A DNA stretch of 56,916 nt from an uncultured Bdellovibrionales bacterium (lineage in GTDB: Bacteria > Patescibacteriota > Minisyncoccia > Moranbacterales > UBA9337): the NCBI GenBank assembly GCA_964605525.1, contig CAZSCV010000007.1:1-56916 (forward strand), in the 5' to 3' direction. The notes under the pieces were generated by a model, which made no database searches, was not told the origin of the DNA, and saw only the letters and a program-made list of their open reading frames with translations. The translations under genes and the position numbers were made by a program. Of the stretch, positions 1 to 25,332 are shown in pieces (positions within the stretch are counted from its first letter, which is position 1; every line of letters starts with the position of its first letter).

Positions 1-17
1 CGTATGTATAAAACATG

Positions 18-91
18 TGGGCGATCCAGGACTCGAACCTGGGACCTCAGCATTATCAGTGCTGCGCTCTAACCACCTGAGCTAATCGCCC
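18..91 (-). tRNA. tRNA-Ile(GAT)
   Basis: Reverse complement GGGCGATTAGCTCAGGTGGTTAGAGCG-CAGCA CT GAT AA TGCTG-AGGTCCCAGGTTCGAGTCCTGGATCGCCCA folds as a cloverleaf; CCA not encoded. Confidence 0.96.
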
Positions 92-169
92 GTTTTTTCA
101 ATAACCAAAATCAACTATTTTTACGCTAAGTGAAACTAATTCGTGTTTATACTGAGCGAAGTCGAAGTG

Positions 170-242
170 TGGACCGGACAGGACTTGAACCCGCTACCTC
201 CTCGGTGCAAACGAGGCGCTCTACCAGGTGAGCTACCGGCCC
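170..242 (-). tRNA. tRNA-Ala(TGC)
   Basis: Reverse complement GGGCCGGTAGCTCACCTGGTAGAGCG-CCTCG TT TGC AC CGAGG-AGGTAGCGGGTTCAAGTCCTGTCCGGTCCA folds as a cloverleaf. Confidence 0.95.
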
Positions 243-277
243 TAATTTTATTTTTAAGACTTTTTGTAAATGAATTT

Positions 278-331
278 TGGACGTGGCGCTCGAACTCTAT
301 CCGCCTTTGGTGGAAGGTGAGCTACCGGCCC
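278..331 (-). pseudogene. degenerate tRNA-Ala-like remnant containing a short palindrome
   Basis: 315-331 is identical to 226-242 (first 17 nt of tRNA-Ala). It ends GTTCGAGCGCCACGTCCA like a T-arm/acceptor end, and the middle is the hairpin tccgcc-ttt-ggtgga. Confidence 0.6.
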
Positions 332-359
332 AAAAAATGTTTTTAAATTTACCTTATGT

Positions 360-387
360 ATTATACATTTAAAAAATAATTTGTCCA
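360..387 (-). promoter_or_regulatory. sigma70-type promoter for tRNA-Ala/tRNA-Ile
   Basis: Minus strand TGGACA-N16-TATAAT. Confidence 0.6.
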
Positions 388-435
388 GTGTTAAGTTTGG
401 CTTGGCATTGATTTTTCAGCTTCTAATATGTGGAT

Positions 436-462
436 TTGACAAAACTTGAAATATGATATAAA
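436..462 (+). promoter_or_regulatory. sigma70-type promoter for secE-nusG
   Basis: TTGACA at 436-441; extended -10 TGaTATAAA at 454-462. Confidence 0.55.
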
Positions 463-511
463 TTTGGAATATCAATAAAGCCCCTGAGGGGCTTTTAAAA
501 AAGGGAAAAAT

Positions 512-694
512 ATGAATAAAATCATAAGTTTTATCAAAGAAGCCAAGGCGGAACTGATGAAGGTTAACTGGCCGACAAAAAAACAAACTATTAATTATAC
601 TTTAGTAGTTGTTTTATTGAGTTTGGTAGTGTCTGTTTTTTTGGGAAGTTTGGATTATCTGTTTAGCAGCATTTTGAAAGCATTTATTATATAA
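512..694 (+). CDS. secE: preprotein translocase subunit SecE
   Basis: 60 aa, ELxKVNWPTKK motif followed by a TM helix; upstream of nusG. Confidence 0.95.
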   Translation: MNKIISFIKEAKAELMKVNWPTKKQTINYTLVVVLLSLVVSVFLGSLDYLFSSILKAFII

Positions 695-704
695 TATTTT
701 TAAT

Positions 705-1250
705 ATGGCAAAGCAAACACAACATCATGGAAGGGCTTGGTATGTGCTTCATACTTATTCTGGATATGAAGACAATGTCTGTCGAAATCTCAAGCAAAGA
801 ATTGAGTCGATGGATATGCAGGATTTGATTTTCGACGTCATGGTTCCTACTGAAAAAAGAATTAAAATTAAGGCAGGAAAAAGAGCAGTAGTAGAAGAAA
901 AAATTTATCCGGGATATGTTTTGGTGGATATGATAGTAACGGATGCGTCTTGGTATGTGGTTCGAAATACCCCGAATGTTACCGGCTTTATCGGACTCGG
1001 AACAACTCCAACCCCGATTGACCCGGCGGAAATCCAGATGCTCAAAAAGAGAATGGGAGTGGCTGAGCCGAAATTTAAAATTGATGTAAAATCCGGAGAT
1101 TCTGTTAAAATTAACGAAGGACCATTCAAAGATTTTGACGGGAAAATCCAGGAAATTGACGAAGAGAAAGGAAAGGTTAAGGTTTTGGTTTCAATCTTCG
1201 GAAGAGAAACCCCGGTTGAATTGGACTTTTTGCAGATTAAAAAAATATAA
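705..1250 (+). CDS. nusG: transcription termination/antitermination factor NusG
   Basis: WYVLHTYSGYE NGN domain, YPGYVLV, KOW domain GPFKDFDG, IFGRETPVEL. Confidence 0.98.
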   Translation: MAKQTQHHGRAWYVLHTYSGYEDNVCRNLKQRIESMDMQDLIFDVMVPTEKRIKIKAGKRAVVEEKIYPGYVLVDMIVTDASWYVVRNTPNVTGFIGLGTTPTPIDPAEIQMLKKRMGVAEPKFKIDVKSGDSVKINEGPFKDFDGKIQEIDEEKGKVKVLVSIFGRETPVELDFLQIKKI

Positions 1251-1271
1251 TATTTTTAAAATTATCGTAAT

Positions 1272-1694
1272 ATGGCAAAGGAAATAATGACAGTTGTAAA
1301 ATTGCAAGTTCAGGCAGGAAAAGCCAATCCGGCTCCTCCGATTGGTCCGGCATTGGGACAGCACGGTCTTAATATCCAAGATTTTTGCGTCCGCTTTAAC
1401 GATGCTACCAAAGAAAGAATGGGAGATGTTATTCCTGTAGAAATCACCGTATATACCGACCGATCTTTTGATTTTATCATGAAAACTTCTCCTGCCGCCG
1501 ATCTTCTTAAGAAAGCGGCCAAGATTGAAAAAGGTGCCGGCAATCCGCTTAAGGATAAGGTTGGAAGCGTTACCAAGGATCAGGTCCGAGAAATTGCCAC
1601 AGCGAAAATGGAAGATTTGAATGCTGATGACATTGAGGGAGCGATGAAGATTATTGAAGGAACAGCGCGTTCAATGGGAATAACAATAAAGTAG
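1272..1694 (+). CDS. rplK: 50S ribosomal protein L11
   Basis: [18 protein letters not shown] and IEGTARSMG motifs. Confidence 0.98.
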
Positions 1695-1755
1695 ATTGTA
1701 TAATTAATTCGTTTCATGCTTCATATTTATTATGTGTTGTGTGAAGATAATATTT

Positions 1756-1789
1756 GTGGGAGAATTATCAAAAATAATTCGCTTACCAC
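1756..1789 (+). promoter_or_regulatory. putative ribosomal protein L1 autoregulatory binding site
   Basis: GTGG-GA-GAATTAT(caaaa)ATAATTC-gctta-CCAC: two helices around an asymmetric loop, 10 nt before the rplA ATG. Confidence 0.65.
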
Positions 1790-1799
1790 GAGAAACAAT

Positions 1800-2474
1800 A
1801 TGAAAAGAGGAAAAAAATATCAAGCAAGTGCTGAAAAAATTGATAAAAATAAGGTTTATTCTGTTAGTGAAGCGGTAAAATTGGTAAAAGAAAACAAGGT
1901 TGCCAAGTTTGATGAATCAGTGGAGGTTCATGTGCGAATGGAAATTGATCCGAAAAAAGGAGATCAGCAGGTTCGCGGAGCAACAGTCTTGCCGAATGGA
2001 ACTGGAAAAAGCAAAAAGATTGCAGTGGCTACCTTGACAAAAGCGGATGAAGCCAAGAAATCTGGAGCGGATATCGTTGGAGGTGAAGATTTGATTGAAA
2101 AAATAAAAAGCGGAAAAATTGAATTTGATATTTTAGTGGCGACTCCCGAAATGATGCCGAAATTGGCCGTGATTGCGAAAATCCTCGGACCGAAGGGATT
2201 GATGCCGAGTCCAAAGACAGAAACTGTGACGGAAAAAATCAAAGAAGCTGTGGAGATGCTCAAGAAGGGAAAAGTGAGTTTTAAAAATGACAACACTGGA
2301 AATTTGCATCAGGTGATCGGAAAGGTTTCTTTTGATGAAAAAAAGTTGGAAGAAAATTTTGTTTCTTTTATGGATGCTTTGAGAAAATCCAAGCCAACAG
2401 GAGTAAAGGGAAAATTTATTACCGGAATTACGATTTGCTCAACTATGGGACCAGGAGTAAAAGTTAATTTGTAG
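1800..2474 (+). CDS. rplA: 50S ribosomal protein L1
   Basis: KFDESVEVH, QQVRGATVLPNGTG, LGPKGLMPSPK, STMGPG; start moved to ATG 1800 (MKRGKKY). Confidence 0.97.
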   Translation: MKRGKKYQASAEKIDKNKVYSVSEAVKLVKENKVAKFDESVEVHVRMEIDPKKGDQQVRGATVLPNGTGKSKKIAVATLTKADEAKKSGADIVGGEDLIEKIKSGKIEFDILVATPEMMPKLAVIAKILGPKGLMPSPKTETVTEKIKEAVEMLKKGKVSFKNDNTGNLHQVIGKVSFDEKKLEENFVSFMDALRKSKPTGVKGKFITGITICSTMGPGVKVNL

Positions 2475-2506
2475 CTTGTAAATTTTTGGTATAGTAGGAA
2501 ATAAGG

Positions 2507-2535
2507 AAGCCTCGTCAAAAGCGAGGCTTTTCTTT
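2507..2535 (+). terminator. intrinsic terminator after rplA
   Basis: aagcctcg / cgaggctt stem followed by a T-rich tract. Confidence 0.75.
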
Positions 2536-2562
2536 ATGATGTTTCCATATTCCGTAGTTCTG

Positions 2563-2591
2563 TTGACATAAAAGGTTTTGTTGCGTAAAAT
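2563..2591 (+). promoter_or_regulatory. sigma70 promoter for the nucleotide-kinase cluster
   Basis: TTGACA-N17-TAAAAT. Confidence 0.7.
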
Positions 2592-2659
2592 AGTATACGT
2601 GCCTGGGAATGTCTTGTGAAAATTCTCAAAAGGCGCTAATTATTTTTTCATTTGAAACA

Positions 2660-3220
2660 ATGACAAAAAAAAGAATTGTAATCGGGCTAGTTGGAGCGAC
2701 TGGAAGCGGAAAGGATACCGTTGCTAAATATTTGAAAGAGAAGTATGACGTTCAATTGATGCGTTTTGCCGATCCGTTGAAAGAAACTCTTTCGATTTAT
2801 TTCGATGAATTTTCCAAGGAAGATCAGCAATGGCTGGCGGAAGAATTTATCAATCGCTTTGGACCGGATATCTTGCCACGCGCTCTTCGCAAAAGAATTG
2901 ATAATGGAGAAGGCGTGATTGTTGTTAATGGAGTGAGGCTCTGGGAAGATTTTCATTTTATCAAATCATATACTAACAGTTTTATTATTTATGTAAAATT
3001 GGATCAGAAAATTCGTTTTGAAAGAATTAAGGGTCGAGGAGAAAAGACTGATGACAATACCCTAACCTTTGAGCAATTCCAAAAATCGGAAAATGTTACC
3101 ACCGAGAAAGACGTTCCGACAATCGGAGAAAAGGCTGATTTCATAATTGATAATAGTAAAGATCTTGAATATCTTCTTTCTGAATCGGACAAGGTGATGG
3201 AAAAAATGATGAACGCATAG
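2660..3220 (+). CDS. P-loop nucleoside monophosphate kinase-like protein, paralog 1 (AAA_17/UPF0200/dNMP-kinase-like fold)
   Basis: N-terminal Walker A GLVGATGSGKDT, VVNGVR, lid RFERIKGRGE, ADFIIDN; start at ATG 2660. Confidence 0.85.
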   Translation: MTKKRIVIGLVGATGSGKDTVAKYLKEKYDVQLMRFADPLKETLSIYFDEFSKEDQQWLAEEFINRFGPDILPRALRKRIDNGEGVIVVNGVRLWEDFHFIKSYTNSFIIYVKLDQKIRFERIKGRGEKTDDNTLTFEQFQKSENVTTEKDVPTIGEKADFIIDNSKDLEYLLSESDKVMEKMMNA

Positions 3221-9761: not shown

Positions 9762-10706
9762 TTATTTTCTGAGAAATTCAGAGGCTTCTTTTTCAATATT
9801 TTTGTATTTGTTTTTTTCTTTTTTTCCGATTGGAATCCAGATGATTCTTTTGTCCTTTTGAAACCAAGTGCGCTGGCGTTTAGCATAATTTTTTTCTGCT
9901 AGGTATATTTTTTCTTGCAGTTCCTCTTTGGTTTTTATGTTTCCTTTGAGAAATTCAGGAATCAGATTATAGCTCAATCCGAAGCTTTGGATTTTTTTCC
10001 AGCTCAATTTGTATTTTTTGTGCAGATTTTCAACTTCCTCGATCATTCCCATTGAAAATCTTTTCCCGACATTTTTCCGTATCCGTTCGTTTAATTCTTC
10101 CTTGTTTCGCAAAATTCCAATTTGGAGGAATTCAATTTCTCCCTCACCCCCAACCCCTCTCCCGGAGGGCGAGGGGGAAATGGAAGGGACTTTGCCGATT
10201 GATTTGCAGATTTCAATGGCGCGGATGAGGCGGACTTTGTTTTTGGCGTCGATGTTTTTCGCTCTTTCCGGATCCAGTTTTTTTAATTTATTAAAAAGTG
10301 TTTCTGCGCTTAATTCTTGCAGTTTGATTCGTAATTCTTTGTCAGGTTTCACTTCCGGAAAATCCACGTTATCGACGATAGCTTTTATCCAAAATCCGGT
10401 GCCACCGCAAATGATCGGAACTTTGCCGCGCTTCAAAATATCCTTGATTATTTTCTCGGTTTTCTTTTTGAATTTGGCGGCGTTGTATTCCGTTTTTGGC
10501 GAGGCGATATCAAGCATATGGTGCGGAGCCATTTTTTGTTCCGCTTCGGTTATTTTTCCTGATCCAATGTCCATTCCGCGGTAAATCTGTCGCGAGTCAG
10601 CGGAAATAATTTCACCATCAAATTTTTGCGCAAGCCGAATCGCCACATCCGATTTTCCGGAAGCAGTAGGACCGAGGATGACGATTATTTTATTGTTTAT
10701 TGACAT
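9762..10706 (-). CDS. miaA: tRNA (adenosine(37)-N6)-dimethylallyltransferase
   Basis: ILGPTASGKS, ISADSRQIYRGMDIGSGK, GGTGFW, YAKRQRTWF; start at ATG 10706 (MSINNK). Confidence 0.96.
   Translation of the reverse strand: MSINNKIIVILGPTASGKSDVAIRLAQKFDGEIISADSRQIYRGMDIGSGKITEAEQKMAPHHMLDIASPKTEYNAAKFKKKTEKIIKDILKRGKVPIICGGTGFWIKAIVDNVDFPEVKPDKELRIKLQELSAETLFNKLKKLDPERAKNIDAKNKVRLIRAIEICKSIGKVPSISPSPSGRGVGGEGEIEFLQIGILRNKEELNERIRKNVGKRFSMGMIEEVENLHKKYKLSWKKIQSFGLSYNLIPEFLKGNIKTKEELQEKIYLAEKNYAKRQRTWFQKDKRIIWIPIGKKEKNKYKNIEKEASEFLRK
10139..10178. repeat. GC-rich palindromic repeat inserted in-frame in miaA (copy 1)
   Basis: ctccctcacccccaacccctctcccggagggcgaggggga; 39/40 identical to 11627-11666; encodes SPSPSGRGVGGEG. 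Confidence 0.9.
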
Positions 10707-10728
10707 ATGTTTTGCAGTTTGATAGTAT
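10700..10728 (+). promoter_or_regulatory. sigma70 promoter overlapping the miaA start codon, firing away from miaA
   Basis: TTGACA(10700-10705)-N17-TAGTAT(10723-10728). Confidence 0.65.
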
Positions 10729-10734
10729 TTTTTC

Positions 10735-10912
10735 AAGCTGGTTTTCGCAGGAGAGATTGAATCCGCGAAAGGATTATCTCTGAAAACTTAACCCCTACGC
10801 CTAGAAGCAGCCAGTTAAGGCTCTGACTCAGGAAACGCCTTTGTAGGGGCGATTACAGCCAAGGTAGGAGCTAGGCAGGTTATTATGCAACAGTCATGAT
10901 AACCTGCTTTTT
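10735..10912 (+). ncRNA. candidate stand-alone structured ncRNA (~175 nt), family unassigned
   Basis: Own promoter upstream and + strand terminator at the end; GC-richer than flanks; helices gttttc/gaaaac, agagat/atctct, aatcc/ggatt, cccctac/gtagggg, agcc/ggct; no convincing ORF. Confidence 0.55.
10875..10912 (+). terminator. intrinsic terminator on + strand (antisense to miaB-miaA)
   Basis: 13-bp stem gcaggttattatg / catgataacctgc; the U tract is on the + strand only. Confidence 0.7.
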
Positions 10913-12320
10913 ATTTTATTGTAATCCCTTCTAAATTCCAAATATTAGCTTTGGCGATTTTTACTTTGATTATTTTTCCGATGAGGTTTTTTGACTCCGA
11001 CGTTTTGTCGGAGTGAAAATTGGGTACAATTTTCACATTTTTCATTGTGCGGGTTTTGCCGAAATAGTTTCTGTCTTTTTTGTTTTCAATCAGGACTTCC
11101 AAAGTTTTTCCGACATATTTTTTGTTATTTTCAAAACACGTTTTTTTGAGAATTTCATTGAGATAATTCGCTCTTCTTTCTTTTTCCATTTTACTGACGT
11201 TGTCTTTCATTTTCCAGGCAGCTGTTTCTGGGCGGGGGGAGAATTTTCCGAAAAATACCATATCGAATTTCGCCTTGCGCATCACTTCGGCGCTATCTTC
11301 AAATTGTTTTTTGGTTTCTCCCGGAAAGCCAACAATGATGTCGGAAGTAATTGAAAATGGAACAGCGGGCTTATGTTTTTTAAATGCTGATTTTATTTTC
11401 CGCATAATTTTCAGATATTCTTTGGCGGTGTATTTGCGATTCATATTGCGGAGAACTGCATCATTTCCGGCTTGAATCGGAAGATGGAAATTTTCGCAAA
11501 CCTTTTTGCACTTGGCGACGGTTTCAATCATTTCATCTGTCACATCTTTGGGATGGTTGCTCACAAAACTGATCCAAAATTTTCCGGGAATCGCATTAAT
11601 TTTTTTCAGGAGTTGGGAGAAATTAGCTCCCTCACCCCTAACCCCTCTCCCGGAGGGCGAGGGGGATTTGTAACTGTTCACGTTTTGTCCTAATAGGATA
11701 ATGTGTTTCGTCCCATTTTCGATCAGTCTTTTCACTTCAGAAATTATATCTTCTGTCGGGCGGGAAACTTCGCGTCCGCGGGCATTCGGCACGACGCAAT
11801 AGGCGCAAAAGTTGTTGCACCCGGTCATAATGGGGACGCCGGCTTGAAATTTATTCTTATACTGAGGTGTGATTGAAAAGTATGAAGCGTTATTTCTGGG
11901 GATTATTAATTTGGGATATGCTTTTAATTTTTTCTGCCTAAGGCGGACCAGCCTTGGGCTGGCAATAATAAACTTTTCAAACTTTTCGAATTCATTGATT
12001 GGAAAAAATAAATCAACCTTGCCCTTGAGTCTTCTTTGCACATCCGGTCTATTTGCCAAACATCCTGTCAGTATGATTTTAATTCTTGATTCCTGATTCT
12101 TGATTCCCAATTCTTGACTCTTAATTCTCAGATTGTGTATCTGTCCGTAAATCCGGTCTTCTGCCATTTGGCGAACTCCGCAGGTATTGAAAATTACCAA
12201 ATCCGCTTCGTTGATGTTTTCGGTTTCTCTAAATTTTTGAGACGACAAAAATCCAGCGATTCTTTCACTATCGCTATGATTCATTTGACACCCAAATGTT
12301 TTGATGTAATACTTTGACAT
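10911..12320 (-). CDS. miaB: tRNA-2-methylthio-N6-dimethylallyladenosine synthase (radical SAM, TRAM)
   Basis: KTFGCQMN, NTCGVR, TGC; radical SAM CNNFCAYC; HLPIQAG; DIIVGFPGET; adjacent to miaA. Confidence 0.93.
   Translation of the reverse strand: MSKYYIKTFGCQMNHSDSERIAGFLSSQKFRETENINEADLVIFNTCGVRQMAEDRIYGQIHNLRIKSQELGIKNQESRIKIILTGCLANRPDVQRRLKGKVDLFFPINEFEKFEKFIIASPRLVRLRQKKLKAYPKLIIPRNNASYFSITPQYKNKFQAGVPIMTGCNNFCAYCVVPNARGREVSRPTEDIISEVKRLIENGTKHIILLGQNVNSYKSPSPSGRGVRGEGANFSQLLKKINAIPGKFWISFVSNHPKDVTDEMIETVAKCKKVCENFHLPIQAGNDAVLRNMNRKYTAKEYLKIMRKIKSAFKKHKPAVPFSITSDIIVGFPGETKKQFEDSAEVMRKAKFDMVFFGKFSPRPETAAWKMKDNVSKMEKERRANYLNEILKKTCFENNKKYVGKTLEVLIENKKDRNYFGKTRTMKNVKIVPNFHSDKTSESKNLIGKIIKVKIAKANIWNLEGITIK
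11627..11666. repeat. GC-rich palindromic repeat inserted in-frame in miaB (copy 2)
   Basis: ctccctcacccctaacccctctcccggagggcgaggggga; encodes SPSPSGRGVRGEG. Confidence 0.9.
12083..12131. repeat. heptamer tandem array (TTCTTGA-like x7) in-frame in miaB
   Basis: ttcttga ttcctga ttcttga ttcccaa ttcttga ctcttaa ttctcag; encodes LRIKSQELGIKNQESRI. Confidence 0.8.
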
Positions 12321-20047: not shown

Positions 20048-20157
20048 AATTACAGATAAAATTAAATAAGTTCTAATTTTTTGTAATAGTAGGCAGCATA
20101 GGTCATTAGCAGTTTTTGGAAAACAGCCACTGACATTTGTTTCTTACGATTAAGCAA

Positions 20158-20844
20158 ATGTCTATTGAAAAATTTGCAGAGAATCTCGGAATTGAATTTA
20201 AAAATCTTGATTTTTTCAGGGAGGCTCTTACTCATCGTTCTTATTTAAATGAAAATCGTTCATATAAATTAAACCACAACGAGCGAATGGAATTCTTGGG
20301 TGATGCTGTTTTGGAATTGGTGGTTACTGAATTTTTGTATCATAACTATCCCAATCCGGAAGGAGAGCTTACGAGCTGGAGAGCGGCGTTGGTAAACGGA
20401 GAGATGCTGGCGAGTATTGCGGGGGAATTAGGAGTGGAGGATTATTTATTGATGAGCAGAGGAGAAGCTAAGGATACCGGGCGCGCCCGCCAATATCTTT
20501 TGGCAAATGCAATGGAAGCGATTATTGGAGCGATTTATTTGGATCAAGGATATGACAGCGCCAAAAAATTCATTATGGATAATGTGGCAATCAAAATTGA
20601 GGATATCTTGAAAAACAAATCATATATGGATCCGAAGAGCTATTTTCAAGAAAAAGCCCAGGAGCATGAAAGAATCACGCCGGCATACCGGGTTATCAAG
20701 GAATGGGGTCCGGATCATGACAAGCGTTTCGTTGTGGGGGTTTTCATCGGAGATGAATTGATTGCTGAAGGAGAAGGAATATCCAAACAAGATGCCCAAA
20801 GAAACGCCGCCGCCGCCGGATTGGAAAAGAAAGGATGGGAGTAG
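20158..20844 (+). CDS. rnc: ribonuclease III
   Basis: ALTHRSY, NERMEFLGDAVLEL, dsRBD with GPDHDK; start at ATG 20158. Confidence 0.97.
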   Translation: MSIEKFAENLGIEFKNLDFFREALTHRSYLNENRSYKLNHNERMEFLGDAVLELVVTEFLYHNYPNPEGELTSWRAALVNGEMLASIAGELGVEDYLLMSRGEAKDTGRARQYLLANAMEAIIGAIYLDQGYDSAKKFIMDNVAIKIEDILKNKSYMDPKSYFQEKAQEHERITPAYRVIKEWGPDHDKRFVVGVFIGDELIAEGEGISKQDAQRNAAAAGLEKKGWE

Positions 20845-25145: not shown

Positions 25146-25164
25146 GAAAAAATAAAATTGAAGT

Positions 25165-25232
25165 TTTCCGCAGACAGCAGGCATTGTATTGTGAAAATGG
25201 TGCGATACAAATAGGTCCTGCCGAGGAAAAGA
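25165..25232 (+). promoter_or_regulatory. L10 leader (rplJ autoregulatory RNA)
   Basis: CCGCAGACAGCAGG ... CCTGCCGAGG flanking a hairpin, the characteristic L10 leader pattern, upstream of rplJ. Confidence 0.8.
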
Positions 25233-25332
25233 TTTTTAGCGAAAGTTAATTTTCTTTATGCCTTACTGCGGGTTATCCGCAGTTTTTGTTTTCTCTGTAA
25301 AGTGTGTGAATTTTTTAAATTTAAATAATCCT

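Follow-up and report, generated by a model that had tools for sequence, protein, structure and literature searches.

A recent insertion at the miaB–miaA junction of a patescibacterial genome carries a predicted antisense transcription unit

Two tRNA-modification genes, miaB and miaA, follow each other on the − strand of the window (the whole 56,916-nt stretch of DNA that was analysed), and the DNA between them bears signals for transcription in the opposite direction. What does this short segment encode, and how did it come to lie between the two genes? A sequence-only reading had proposed a structured stand-alone RNA with a conformational switch, possibly 6S RNA or a new family. The comparisons described here point to recently inserted DNA with a predicted transcription unit of its own, and away from both of these assignments.

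Inserted DNA in an ancestral gene overlap

Pfam assigns the two flanking genes as the sequence-only reading had named them (Table 1). In the three closest relatives, L002 (89–94% nucleotide identity to the window), L001 (~90%) and L061 (82–91%), miaB and miaA overlap by 28 nt without a spacer. The blastn alignments of the window to these relatives break off at about 10694 and restart at 10911. The edges of the segment that they lack are marked by a perfect 12-nt direct repeat at 10685–10696 and 10911–10922. The left copy encodes residues N-K-I-I of MiaA on the − strand, and the right copy includes the miaB stop codon TAA, which is the reverse complement of 10911–10913. Both copies have the derived ACAAT, where the relatives have GATAAT. 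The first codons of miaA (MSIN) come from the left end of the insert, giving the N-terminus MSINNK in place of the MEFRS(D/H)NK of the three relatives. These comparisons show a 214-bp insertion, recent and lineage-restricted, into an ancestral 28-nt miaB/miaA overlap. Both genes were kept intact by the 12-nt duplication of the junction, with miaB retaining its stop codon and miaA gaining a new start and four codons.

That the miaB–miaA region is a recent insertion and not an old intergenic spacer was a point absent from the sequence-only reading.

Table 1 Features at and around the miaB–miaA junction, in coordinates of the window.
Feature	Position	Strand	Basis or remark
miaA (tRNA dimethylallyltransferase)	9762..10706	−	Pfam IPPT, E = 1e-66
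Direct repeat, left copy TTATTTTATTGT, 12 nt	10685..10696		Repeat search: 100% identical, spacing 226
214-nt insert	10697..10910		Absent from three closest relatives (blastn)
Sigma-70-type promoter TTGACA-17-(TG)aTAGTAT	10700..10728	+	10/12 score; overlaps miaA start codon
Predicted ~180-nt non-coding transcript	10735..10915	+	From promoter and terminator positions; no ORF, no Rfam family
Hairpin 1	10740..10788	+	MFE and centroid, pair probability 0.8–0.99
Helix 2, closing stem CCCCUACG/UGUAGGGG, inner hairpin 10809–10822	10792..10849	+	MFE only; weakly supported
Intrinsic terminator, 15-bp stem 10873–10909, then UUUUUAUUUUAUU	10873..10917	+	Terminator-like site scan; stem pairing kept in L062
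miaB (radical-SAM methylthiotransferase)	10911..12320	−	Pfam UPF0004 + Radical_SAM + TRAM
Direct repeat, right copy, 12 nt	10911..10922		Contains miaB stop codon
Weak candidate promoter TTGGAA-17-TAAAAT	10913..10941	−	9/12 match, inside miaB 3′ end

No source of the inserted DNA was found among the phages, plasmids, IMG/VR sequences and related loci searched; BLAST against the phages and plasmids returned no match. There is a short likeness between GCAAAACATATG at 10704–10716 and GCAAACATATG, the ancestral sequence that precedes the former start of miaA. When the insert was aligned locally with the 3′ regions of miaB from the window and its relatives, p against shuffles was about 0.02–0.1, and tblastn of MiaB against the insert gave no match. 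Beyond the 12-nt repeat, an origin by tandem duplication and decay of the junction or of the 3′ end of miaB was rejected.

A predicted transcription unit on the + strand

The promoter and the terminator are called as consensus matches. The −35 box TTGACA (10700–10705) and the −10 box TAGTAT (10723–10728), preceded by the TG of an extended −10 element, agree with the sigma-70 pattern of TTGACA and TAnnnT at a spacing of 16–18 nt with an optional TGn. The start codon of miaA (CAT, 10704–10706) shares bases with the −35 box, and the predicted transcription start is A10735 or A10736, about 7 nt past the −10 box. The window has roughly one promoter site of such quality per 4 kb of strand, among them sites upstream of the L10 leader and of the tRNA genes.

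The terminator hairpin pairs 15 bases within 10873–10909 and is followed by TTTTTATTTTATT, a U5AU4 tract that shares bases with the miaB stop codon. No other terminator-like site in the 57-kb window has as long a stem, and the U·G wobble and U tract of this hairpin are compatible with the + strand only. A stem-loop, an adjoining U tract and a compensatory change in the only second copy (L062, described below) together mark it as a rho-independent terminator. No + strand gene is present downstream. Within the insert there is no plausible ORF, only ORFs of 4–8 codons with poor spacing, and an ATG within the terminator is lost in L062. In all frames, the insert resembles nothing among 5.8 billion protein clusters, so it is not a piece of any known gene.

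The insert thus holds a complete predicted transcription unit with a near-consensus promoter, a ~140-nt ORF-free body and a strong intrinsic terminator, on the strand opposite to miaB and miaA. Because of the promoter, the terminator and the absence of an ORF or a downstream gene, a stand-alone non-coding + strand unit is the most economical reading. On these points the sequence-only reading agrees with ours.

The second copy and the predicted fold

IMG/VR and the JGI metagenomes were searched with the six-frame translations of the element joined by X residues. Nothing was found in IMG/VR; an 18-mer match there (L060) is an unrelated terminator hairpin. The JGI metagenomes yielded one further copy, L062 from Ga0265296, which is ~98.5% identical and shares the miaB-3′/miaA context. 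Its promoter has both hexamers identical to those of the window, with two substitutions that fall in the spacer only. In its terminator stem, a G-C pair has become A-U (10879/10904) and the U·G wobble has become U-A, so that pairing is kept. A longer hairpin stands in place of the apex, and the U tract is retained. Within helix 2, C10800U keeps its pair as U·G, and hairpin 1 is identical in the two copies. All substitutions within the RNA preserve pairs on the + strand; this count covers five or six events, scored on a structure that was itself predicted from these sequences. As the sole other copy is the same insertion at ~98.5% identity, covariation is assessable only for the terminator; among the confidently folded positions of the RNA body, a single substitution is informative. 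Divergence between the copies is ~1.5% in the RNA and equally high in flanking miaB, so purifying selection on the RNA body cannot be shown.

The minimum-free-energy and centroid structures both consist of three separate hairpins, with the 3′ end sequestered in the terminator. The nested helices of the sequence-only reading are borne out in hairpin 1, where the inner stems 10752–10757/10776–10781 and 10760–10764/10771–10775 close a GCGAAA loop. They are less secure in helix 2, where the outer-stem pair probability is 0.2–0.3 in the window and 0.6–0.7 in L062. The switch that it proposed between gcctag and ctaggc is not borne out: the sequences are there, but their equilibrium pair probability is ~0, and L062 has a C·A mismatch. 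The description as a structured RNA holds for the whole 178-nt molecule (z = −3.8) but not for the body without the terminator (z = −0.96; 33 of 200 shuffles fold as well). The body being close to shuffled sequence, the apparent structuredness is mostly due to the terminator.

Searches for related RNAs

Rfam gave no match in the region, either with the whole window at gathering thresholds or with both strands of 10600–11000 (401 nt) at E<=10, a search that included the 6S, SRP, tmRNA and RNase P models. ARAGORN placed no tmRNA there. By eye, the short GAAGCAGCCA resembles helix 8 of 4.5S RNA, a likeness without model support. Searches with blastn and nhmmer found neither a further copy in the window nor a homologue in 57 miaA loci from GTDB genomes, and BLAST, nhmmer and a covariance model found no other copy in 345 kb of patescibacterial loci. 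The covariance model, built on the 141-nt core, recovered from these loci its two training sequences and one 21-bit match in the miaA coding sequence of L018, which we take as spurious. In the literature, we found no paper on CPR 6S RNA or on small RNAs at the miaB–miaA locus. With two copies of ~98.5% identity, one the same insertion as the other, and a body z of −0.96, the new structured RNA family suggested by the sequence-only reading is not demonstrable.

Possible roles of the insert

The explanation that we prefer, and to which we give about an even chance, is a recently acquired, lineage-restricted and self-contained unit that would yield an orphan RNA antisense to the transcript of the miaB–miaA junction. 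The RNA of ~180 nt would be fully complementary to the new intercistronic segment, which is now the 5′ leader of miaA. As no + strand gene follows and the complementarity to this leader is full, the likeliest effect would be in cis, by antisense pairing with the read-through miaB–miaA transcript. The + strand promoter overlaps the miaA start, and miaA is reached only by transcription across the insert. Convergent RNA polymerases could collide at the miaA start or occlude it. Pairing and interference together might uncouple or dampen the expression of miaA. We infer this mechanism from the geometry of the locus. Interference of the promoter with miaA, which the sequence-only reading had also raised, is a reasonable proposal. 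RNase III could cleave the sense/antisense duplex.

A gene for RNase III lies in the window at 20137–20844.

It is rather unlikely that the insert is a functionless remnant of foreign DNA or of a decayed accessory cassette (for example, a small-gene cassette that has lost its ORF), with the promoter and terminator as relics and any transcript as noise. The insignificant fold of the body, the equal divergence of RNA and flanks, and a distribution limited to two near-identical copies are all consistent with a remnant. So are unrelated antisense cassettes at the same junction in L009, L030, L031, L026 and L062, the last with an ORF of 114 aa. However, the promoter hexamers, hairpin 1 and the terminator architecture are intact in both copies, the terminator has undergone a compensatory change, no frame retains an ORF or a protein similarity, and the other junction cassettes share no sequence with the insert.

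The functional strand might instead be the − strand, which we consider improbable. With the insert, miaA would then have gained a structured 5′ leader or intercistronic spacer, transcribed by read-through from miaB or from the weak TTGGAA-17-TAAAAT promoter (10941–10913), and the reverse complement of the terminator hairpin would serve in processing or, as a 5′ stem-loop, in stabilisation. No good − strand promoter adjoins the miaA start, so miaA has to be transcribed across the insert in any case. The − strand also folds at least as well, with z = −2.18 for the body, slightly better than the + strand body, and −4.2 for the whole. At the end of miaB, a derived ATA>ATT substitution and an alteration of +3 nt have given the candidate promoter its 17-nt spacing, as against ~14 nt in the relatives, whose −35 box is ATGGAA. 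Against this, a 9/12 match is near chance (10 found against 5.8 expected per 3 kb), and neither strand matches an Rfam cis-regulatory family. The three G·U pairs of the window copy become A·C mismatches on the − strand, and each of the four one-sided differences between the two copies agrees with the + strand.

Quite improbable, in our view, is a non-autonomous mobile element, MITE-like or miniature integrative, that made a 12-bp target duplication and by chance carries a promoter reading outward or inward. A discrete insert between perfect 12-nt direct repeats has the form of a target-site duplication. The genome also contains a small repeat inserted in frame into miaA and miaB, and the element is present in the L002-like genomic backbone of L062. 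Yet no inverted repeat joins the insert ends, the element is single-copy in 57 kb, no copy in another context appeared in any collection searched, and no transposase or integrase lies within 0–31 kb. The L062 copy argues further against transposition. There, 135 nt of window-like miaB 3′ end, the element and a window-like miaA start sit together on the L002-like backbone, joined at 3–4 nt of microhomology inside the truncated resident miaA. The junctions in L062 lie at ~1720, where a miaA 5′ fragment meets a miaB 3′ fragment, and at ~1021–1090. The arrival of the element with its window-like flanks points to recombination of a whole segment, although this is one 2-kb metagenomic contig in which an assembly chimera is possible and the far crossover lies beyond the contig end.

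A divergent housekeeping RNA (6S, SRP, tmRNA or RNase P) or a new family of structured RNAs with wide conservation is barely credible and already largely refuted: 6S RNAs are hard to detect by sequence, and a length of ~180 nt with a stand-alone promoter and terminator is compatible with 6S-like RNAs, but the Rfam and ARAGORN searches were negative, the fold is one of three independent hairpins, the last of which ties up the 3′ end as the terminator, and not a closed rod with a central bubble, and the locus is empty in the ~90%-identical relatives, with no detection elsewhere in the JGI metagenomes that, by their protein-source lists, hold the miaA contigs of these relatives. We infer that the predicted RNA is not a housekeeping RNA.

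Other cassettes at the same junction

Larger miaB–miaA gaps are found in L009, L026, L028, L030 and L031, with inserts unrelated to that of the window. The antisense cassettes in L009, L030, L031 and L026, like the 114-aa ORF cassette of L062, each have their own promoter and terminator, and in L062 that cassette and the element stand in tandem. We detected no sequence similarity between the window insert and the other junction cassettes. Rfam gave no match on L026, L028 and L019, and Pfam, NCBIfam and PADLOC assigned no family to the cassette ORF of L062 or to either of the window's two small antisense ORFs. A bolder proposal, which we regard as a long shot, is that self-contained antisense cassettes insert repeatedly where miaB and miaA overlap in Moranbacteria and related lineages. 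Each cassette would bring its own promoter, a payload in the form of an RNA or a small protein, and a terminator next to the miaB stop. The cassettes would be installed with a junction duplication and passed between lineages as whole segments. The RNA of ~180 nt would then be the first case of an RNA as payload, under selection for retuning miaA (i6A37 tRNA modification) in a streamlined CPR genome.

This analysis is useful chiefly for a negative result: the candidate is neither 6S RNA nor a conserved new RNA family. The more interesting leads are the cassette hot-spot at the junction and the apparent segment transfer in L062. If the RNA is made, the locus would record the datable birth of a small RNA or antisense unit in a very small CPR genome, where an insertion of ~200 bp split two translationally overlapping tRNA-modification genes and a 12-nt duplication rescued both frames. 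A new promoter, convergent with miaA, would then also govern this gene and hence the i6A37 modification of tRNA.

Comparison with known systems

Several known systems share features with this locus. Promoter-bearing miniature insertion elements are represented by the Correia elements of Neisseria and the enterobacterial ERIC sequences and MITEs. As in these, an insert of ~200 bp flanked by a direct repeat of its target has brought a promoter beside a host gene. Unlike them, the insert lacks terminal inverted repeats and is single-copy, and its sole second copy lies in the same flanks; the 12-nt duplication is also longer than usual target duplications. Homology-facilitated illegitimate recombination and the import of segments between related strains have been described for naturally transformable bacteria. 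The joining of a window-like segment to an L002-like backbone at 3–4 nt of microhomology is of this kind, whereas the L062 case is known from a single contig that may be chimeric.

With 6S RNA (RF00013), which binds the sigma-70 holoenzyme and templates pRNA, the predicted transcript shares its size of ~180 nt and its status as a stand-alone non-coding bacterial gene. It differs in matching no covariance model, in lacking a rod with paired ends and a large central bubble resembling an open promoter, in ending with a self-contained terminator, and in not being conserved even in the ~90%-identical relatives L001, L002 and L061.

A functional parallel to the preferred antisense unit may be RnaG of Shigella flexneri, a cis-encoded RNA antisense to icsA that is reported to act by pairing and by transcriptional interference (PMC2879508). 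As described there, RnaG is likewise a short untranslated RNA with its own promoter opposite the 5′ region of a gene, and the convergent geometry of the window would permit similar interference. Unlike RnaG in that description, the RNA of the window is predicted from sequence, overlaps a new leader or intercistronic segment and the −35/start-codon region and not the coding body, and lies on recently inserted DNA with homologues confined to two near-identical strains.

Insertion of the element between miaB and miaA

We compared the junction of miaB and miaA with 57 miaA loci from GTDB genomes and with L061, the locus of the closest metagenomic relative, obtained via its protein P0002. The source organism is a Candidatus Moranbacteria-like patescibacterium, its MiaA being best matched by Moranbacteria MAGs. 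In the three closest relatives, L002 (89-94% nucleotide identity to the window over the neighbourhood), L001 (~90%) and L061 (82-91%), the two genes share a 28-nt overlap without a spacer. The blastn alignments of the window to these loci end at about 10694 and restart at 10911, and a perfect 12-nt direct repeat brackets the 214-nt insert. The right copy closes miaB, whose stop codon TAA is the reverse complement of 10911-10913, and the left copy codes for the MiaA residues N-K-I-I. MiaA now starts with MSIN from the insert end, in place of MEFRS(D/H) in the relatives, and the former miaA ATG in the miaB 3′ end is mutated (ATATGG to ATTTGG). As both repeat copies share the derived ACAAT where outgroups have GATAAT, the duplication is genuine. 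Tight miaB–miaA synteny is the rule across Moranbacteria; therefore the spacer is derived and not ancestral. These alignments show the segment to be a recent insertion whose junction duplication left both genes intact.

Around the former miaA start the ancestral sequence (CATATGTTTGC) is similar to 12 nt of the insert at 10704-10716 (CATATGTTTTGC). The duplication may originally have spanned about 37 nt, or the segment may have come in from a donor in which a miaA start already lay beside the element. The insert is not a degenerate tandem duplicate of the miaB 3′ end (local alignment p ~0.02-0.1, no residual protein similarity).

Features of the insertion, its neighbourhood and the comparison loci
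Feature	Position	Strand	Detail
ORF, 64 aa	9516-9710	+	AAAAGGGGGG upstream
miaA	9762-10706	-	Pfam IPPT, E = 1e-66
Palindromic repeat in miaA	10141-10163	-	CCCCCTCGCCCTCCGGGAGAGGGGTTAGGGGTGAGGG
Direct repeat, left	10685-10696		TTATTTTATTGT
Insert	10697-10910		214 nt
Promoter -35	10700-10705	+	TTGACA, 17-nt spacer
Promoter -10	10723-10728	+	TAGTAT, extended -10 TG; 10/12 match
Hairpin 1, inner part	10752-10781	+	loop GCGAAA
Second helix, closing stem	10792-10799 with 10842-10849	+	
Terminator	10873-10909	+	15-pair hairpin, then TTTTTATTTTATT
Direct repeat, right	10911-10922		TTATTTTATTGT
miaB	10911-12320	-	Pfam UPF0004 + Radical_SAM + TRAM
Palindromic repeat in miaB	11615-11651	-	CCCCCTCGCCCTCCGGGAGAGGGGTTAGGGGTGAGGG
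Second divergent promoter	12285-12313	+	TTGACA-17-AATACT with TG
ORF, 92 aa	12397-12675	+	AAGGAGGGGG upstream
RNase III (rnc)	20137-20844		
L10 leader promoter	25117	+	TTGACA-17-TATACT
L10 leader	25150-25298	+	RF00557, 47.8 bits
L062 miaB 3′ part, full	2-1021		
L062 antisense cassette	about 1027-1512		sigma-70-like promoter, 114-aa ORF, terminator abutting miaB stop
L062 miaB-end remnant	after cassette		short
L062 miaA 5′ fragment	after remnant		truncated after about 32 codons
L062 miaB 3′ fragment	1719-1854		135 nt, joined directly to miaA 5′ fragment
L062 element copy	1855-2064		
L062 miaA start	contig end		MSI...
L009 junction insert	2564-3001		RibF-like ORF
L026 junction insert	325-718		~330-nt ORF-poor stretch, TTGACA-17-TATAAT promoter, terminator
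L028 junction insert	2667-3001		
L030 junction insert	2418-3001		receiver-domain ORF
L031 junction insert	2521-3001		membrane ORF
L019 spacer	2880-3010		~85-130 nt, gtcatttcgagcgagc...gctcaagatgac
L061 reverse transcriptase (RVT_1) and bAvd-like gene	1-1233		~9 kb from miaA

Transcription signals and predicted fold

The promoter and the + strand-only terminator claimed in the sequence-only reading are both present, and the miaA start codon (CAT, 10704-10706) lies partly within the -35 hexamer. In 2 x 57 kb our own scan found 27 promoter-like sites as good as this one. Some of them stand immediately before the ribosomal protein L10 leader and before tRNA genes; promoters of this type are thus evidently used by the organism, and the one at the L10 leader is useful as an internal positive control for their use. 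The terminator hairpin has the longest stem among the terminator-like sites of the whole window. Its polarity is given by a U.G wobble, which would become an A.C mismatch on the - strand, and by a U tract on the + strand only. No + strand gene follows the element, as the same reading had noted; its internal ORFs have only 4-8 codons with poor spacing, and no frame resembles any of 5.8 billion protein clusters. An AGGAG within the element RNA is no evidence of translation. Shine-Dalgarno sequences are missing before most genes of the window (almost none within 25 nt of the start, ~29 genes checked), so miaA is no exception in having none.

In the overall predicted fold three hairpins form independently of one another, and the terminator holds the 3′ end. 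The nested helices described earlier can be drawn, but only one of them goes beyond plausibility. The inner part of hairpin 1 is well defined (p = 0.8-0.99), as is the terminator (p about 0.99), whereas pairing in the second helix's closing stem reaches just p = 0.2-0.3. The switch pairing gcctag with ctaggc did not hold up: its equilibrium probability is near zero, and the changes in the second copy, L062, hit non-partner positions and create a C.A mismatch.

A second copy of the element

BLAST of phages and plasmids returned no copy of the element, and an 18-mer match in IMG/VR was rejected as an unrelated terminator. A pseudo-protein query was built from stop-free translations of the element, five frames joined, with six 8-codon seeds spread over 10726-10856. 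These seeds had no match in IMG/VR and found one locus in JGI metagenomes, L062 (contig Ga0265296_1043409, 2075 bp). Because the miaA contigs of the three relatives are also in the JGI metagenomes searched (by protein-source lists), the relatives' genomes are unlikely to have a copy of at least 90% identity at another place. A covariance model of the 141-nt core, run against 345 kb of patescibacterial loci, recovered only the two training sequences and one weak match within coding sequence. What had been suggested as a possible new family is, on these searches, a very narrowly distributed instance with one further copy and no new family.

The first part of L062 shares 95% identity with L002 and 88% with the window; from 1719 on the contig is window-like, with the miaB fragment differing at 2 of 135 positions. 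The miaA 5′ fragment and the miaB 3′ fragment join at a microhomology of only 3-4 nt. Such a join is not expected from shared k-mers of an assembler, and we read L062 as a real recombinant. The structure suggests that a segment was imported between lineages differing by about 12%, by a process like homology-facilitated illegitimate recombination; the alternative is that this single 2-kb contig is chimeric. For the 114-aa ORF of its cassette, Pfam, NCBIfam and PADLOC gave no family.

The two copies have the same promoter hexamers and differ by two substitutions in the spacer between them. One substitution, C10800U, falls in the RNA body (10735-10864) and turns a predicted C-G pair into U.G, while U10865C and G10874A turn predicted G.U pairs into G-C and A-U. 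In the terminator stem the changes are G-C>A-U (10879/10904) and U.G>U-A; the terminator apex has a longer replacement sequence that still pairs, and the U tract is retained. On the + strand all four one-sided transitions are tolerable, whereas on the - strand they would give mismatches (about 1 in 16 by chance). This is suggestive, although the argument is circular, since these same sequences, read on the + strand, were the source of the predicted structure.

Other insertions and repeats in the neighbourhood

Unrelated inserts antisense to miaB/miaA occur at the same junction in other patescibacterial loci; that of L026 has no Rfam match. These loci make the junction look like a hot spot for insertion. 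The L019 spacer forms a long imperfect hairpin that resembles a REP- or MITE-like palindromic repeat. A G+C-rich palindromic repeat of ~37 nt lies in frame in both miaB and miaA, translates as SPSPSGRGVRGEG, and has zero copies expected by chance. The peptide is also in MiaA of the closest relative (P0002), is absent from P0003 and P0004, and has a different sequence in its place in L062 MiaB. The repeat has the look of a small, mobile palindromic element, analogous to the Rickettsia palindromic elements, for which in-frame insertion into coding genes is tolerable.

The exceptions to the scarcity of Shine-Dalgarno sequences are two small ORFs (92 and 64 aa) facing the opposite way to their neighbours, with no match to any Pfam or NCBIfam family. 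The second divergent promoter overlaps the miaB start region with the same geometry as that at the miaA start, and faces the 92-aa ORF, whose position is conserved in L061 and in a further locus, L058. The L061 reverse transcriptase lies beside a bAvd-like gene; such a pair is the hallmark of a diversity-generating retroelement.

Possible function

The promoter and terminator signals of the element are intact on the + strand and retained in the second copy, the comparison shows, with no coding capacity and no known RNA family. We give about an even chance to the element being a transcription unit for a ~180-nt antisense RNA that uncouples or reduces miaA expression. The RNA would be perfectly complementary to the new miaA leader, and the convergent promoter at the miaA start together with antisense pairing, possibly with RNase III, would uncouple or reduce miaA expression. 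No good - strand promoter adjoins miaA; a 9/12 candidate in the miaB 3′ end (TTGGAA-17-TAAAAT, 10941-10913) has a match level near chance. Therefore transcription of miaA must pass through the insert and run head-on into the + strand promoter.

The strongest competitor, although rather unlikely, is that the element is a relic without function, left from foreign or cassette DNA. The RNA has diverged as much as its flanks, so purifying selection on its body is not demonstrable; on the other side, the terminator is, from the two copies, the sole part of the element with real comparative support. It is improbable that the function lies on the - strand, as a leader. The full 178 nt give z = -4.2 on that strand and -3.8 on the + strand, and the 138-nt body without the terminator gives -2.18 and -0.96 (33 of 200 shuffles fold as well as the + strand body); the terminator points to the + strand. 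A non-autonomous mobile element seems slightly less probable again. The segment is flanked by a direct repeat; it has no terminal inverted repeats, no second copy within the window, and no sequence relationship to the inserts at this junction in more distant lineages. The window genes at 0-31 kb are housekeeping genes (nusG, L11, L1, nucleotide kinases, thyX, gatB, thrS, dnaE, rnhB, nusB, rnc, smc, dnaX), with no transposase, integrase, reverse transcriptase or Cas gene among them. A divergent housekeeping RNA or a widely conserved RNA is very improbable: the search against all of Rfam 15 gave no match at the element at gathering thresholds and nothing relevant at E<=10 on both strands of a 401-nt focused segment, and ARAGORN found only four tRNAs, all elsewhere. 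The 6S RNA considered earlier is not supported by the same searches or by the predicted shape, since 6S RNA is a closed rod with a central bubble whereas the element RNA would form separate hairpins.

Small insertions that carry strain-specific sRNA or antisense units are already known, and the antisense unit proposed here would be a new, uncharacterised instance of that kind. The more unusual aspects are those of the locus, namely a 12-nt duplication that resolved a gene overlap, antisense cassettes that recur at this junction in other lineages, and the apparent lateral graft of an element-bearing segment in L062.
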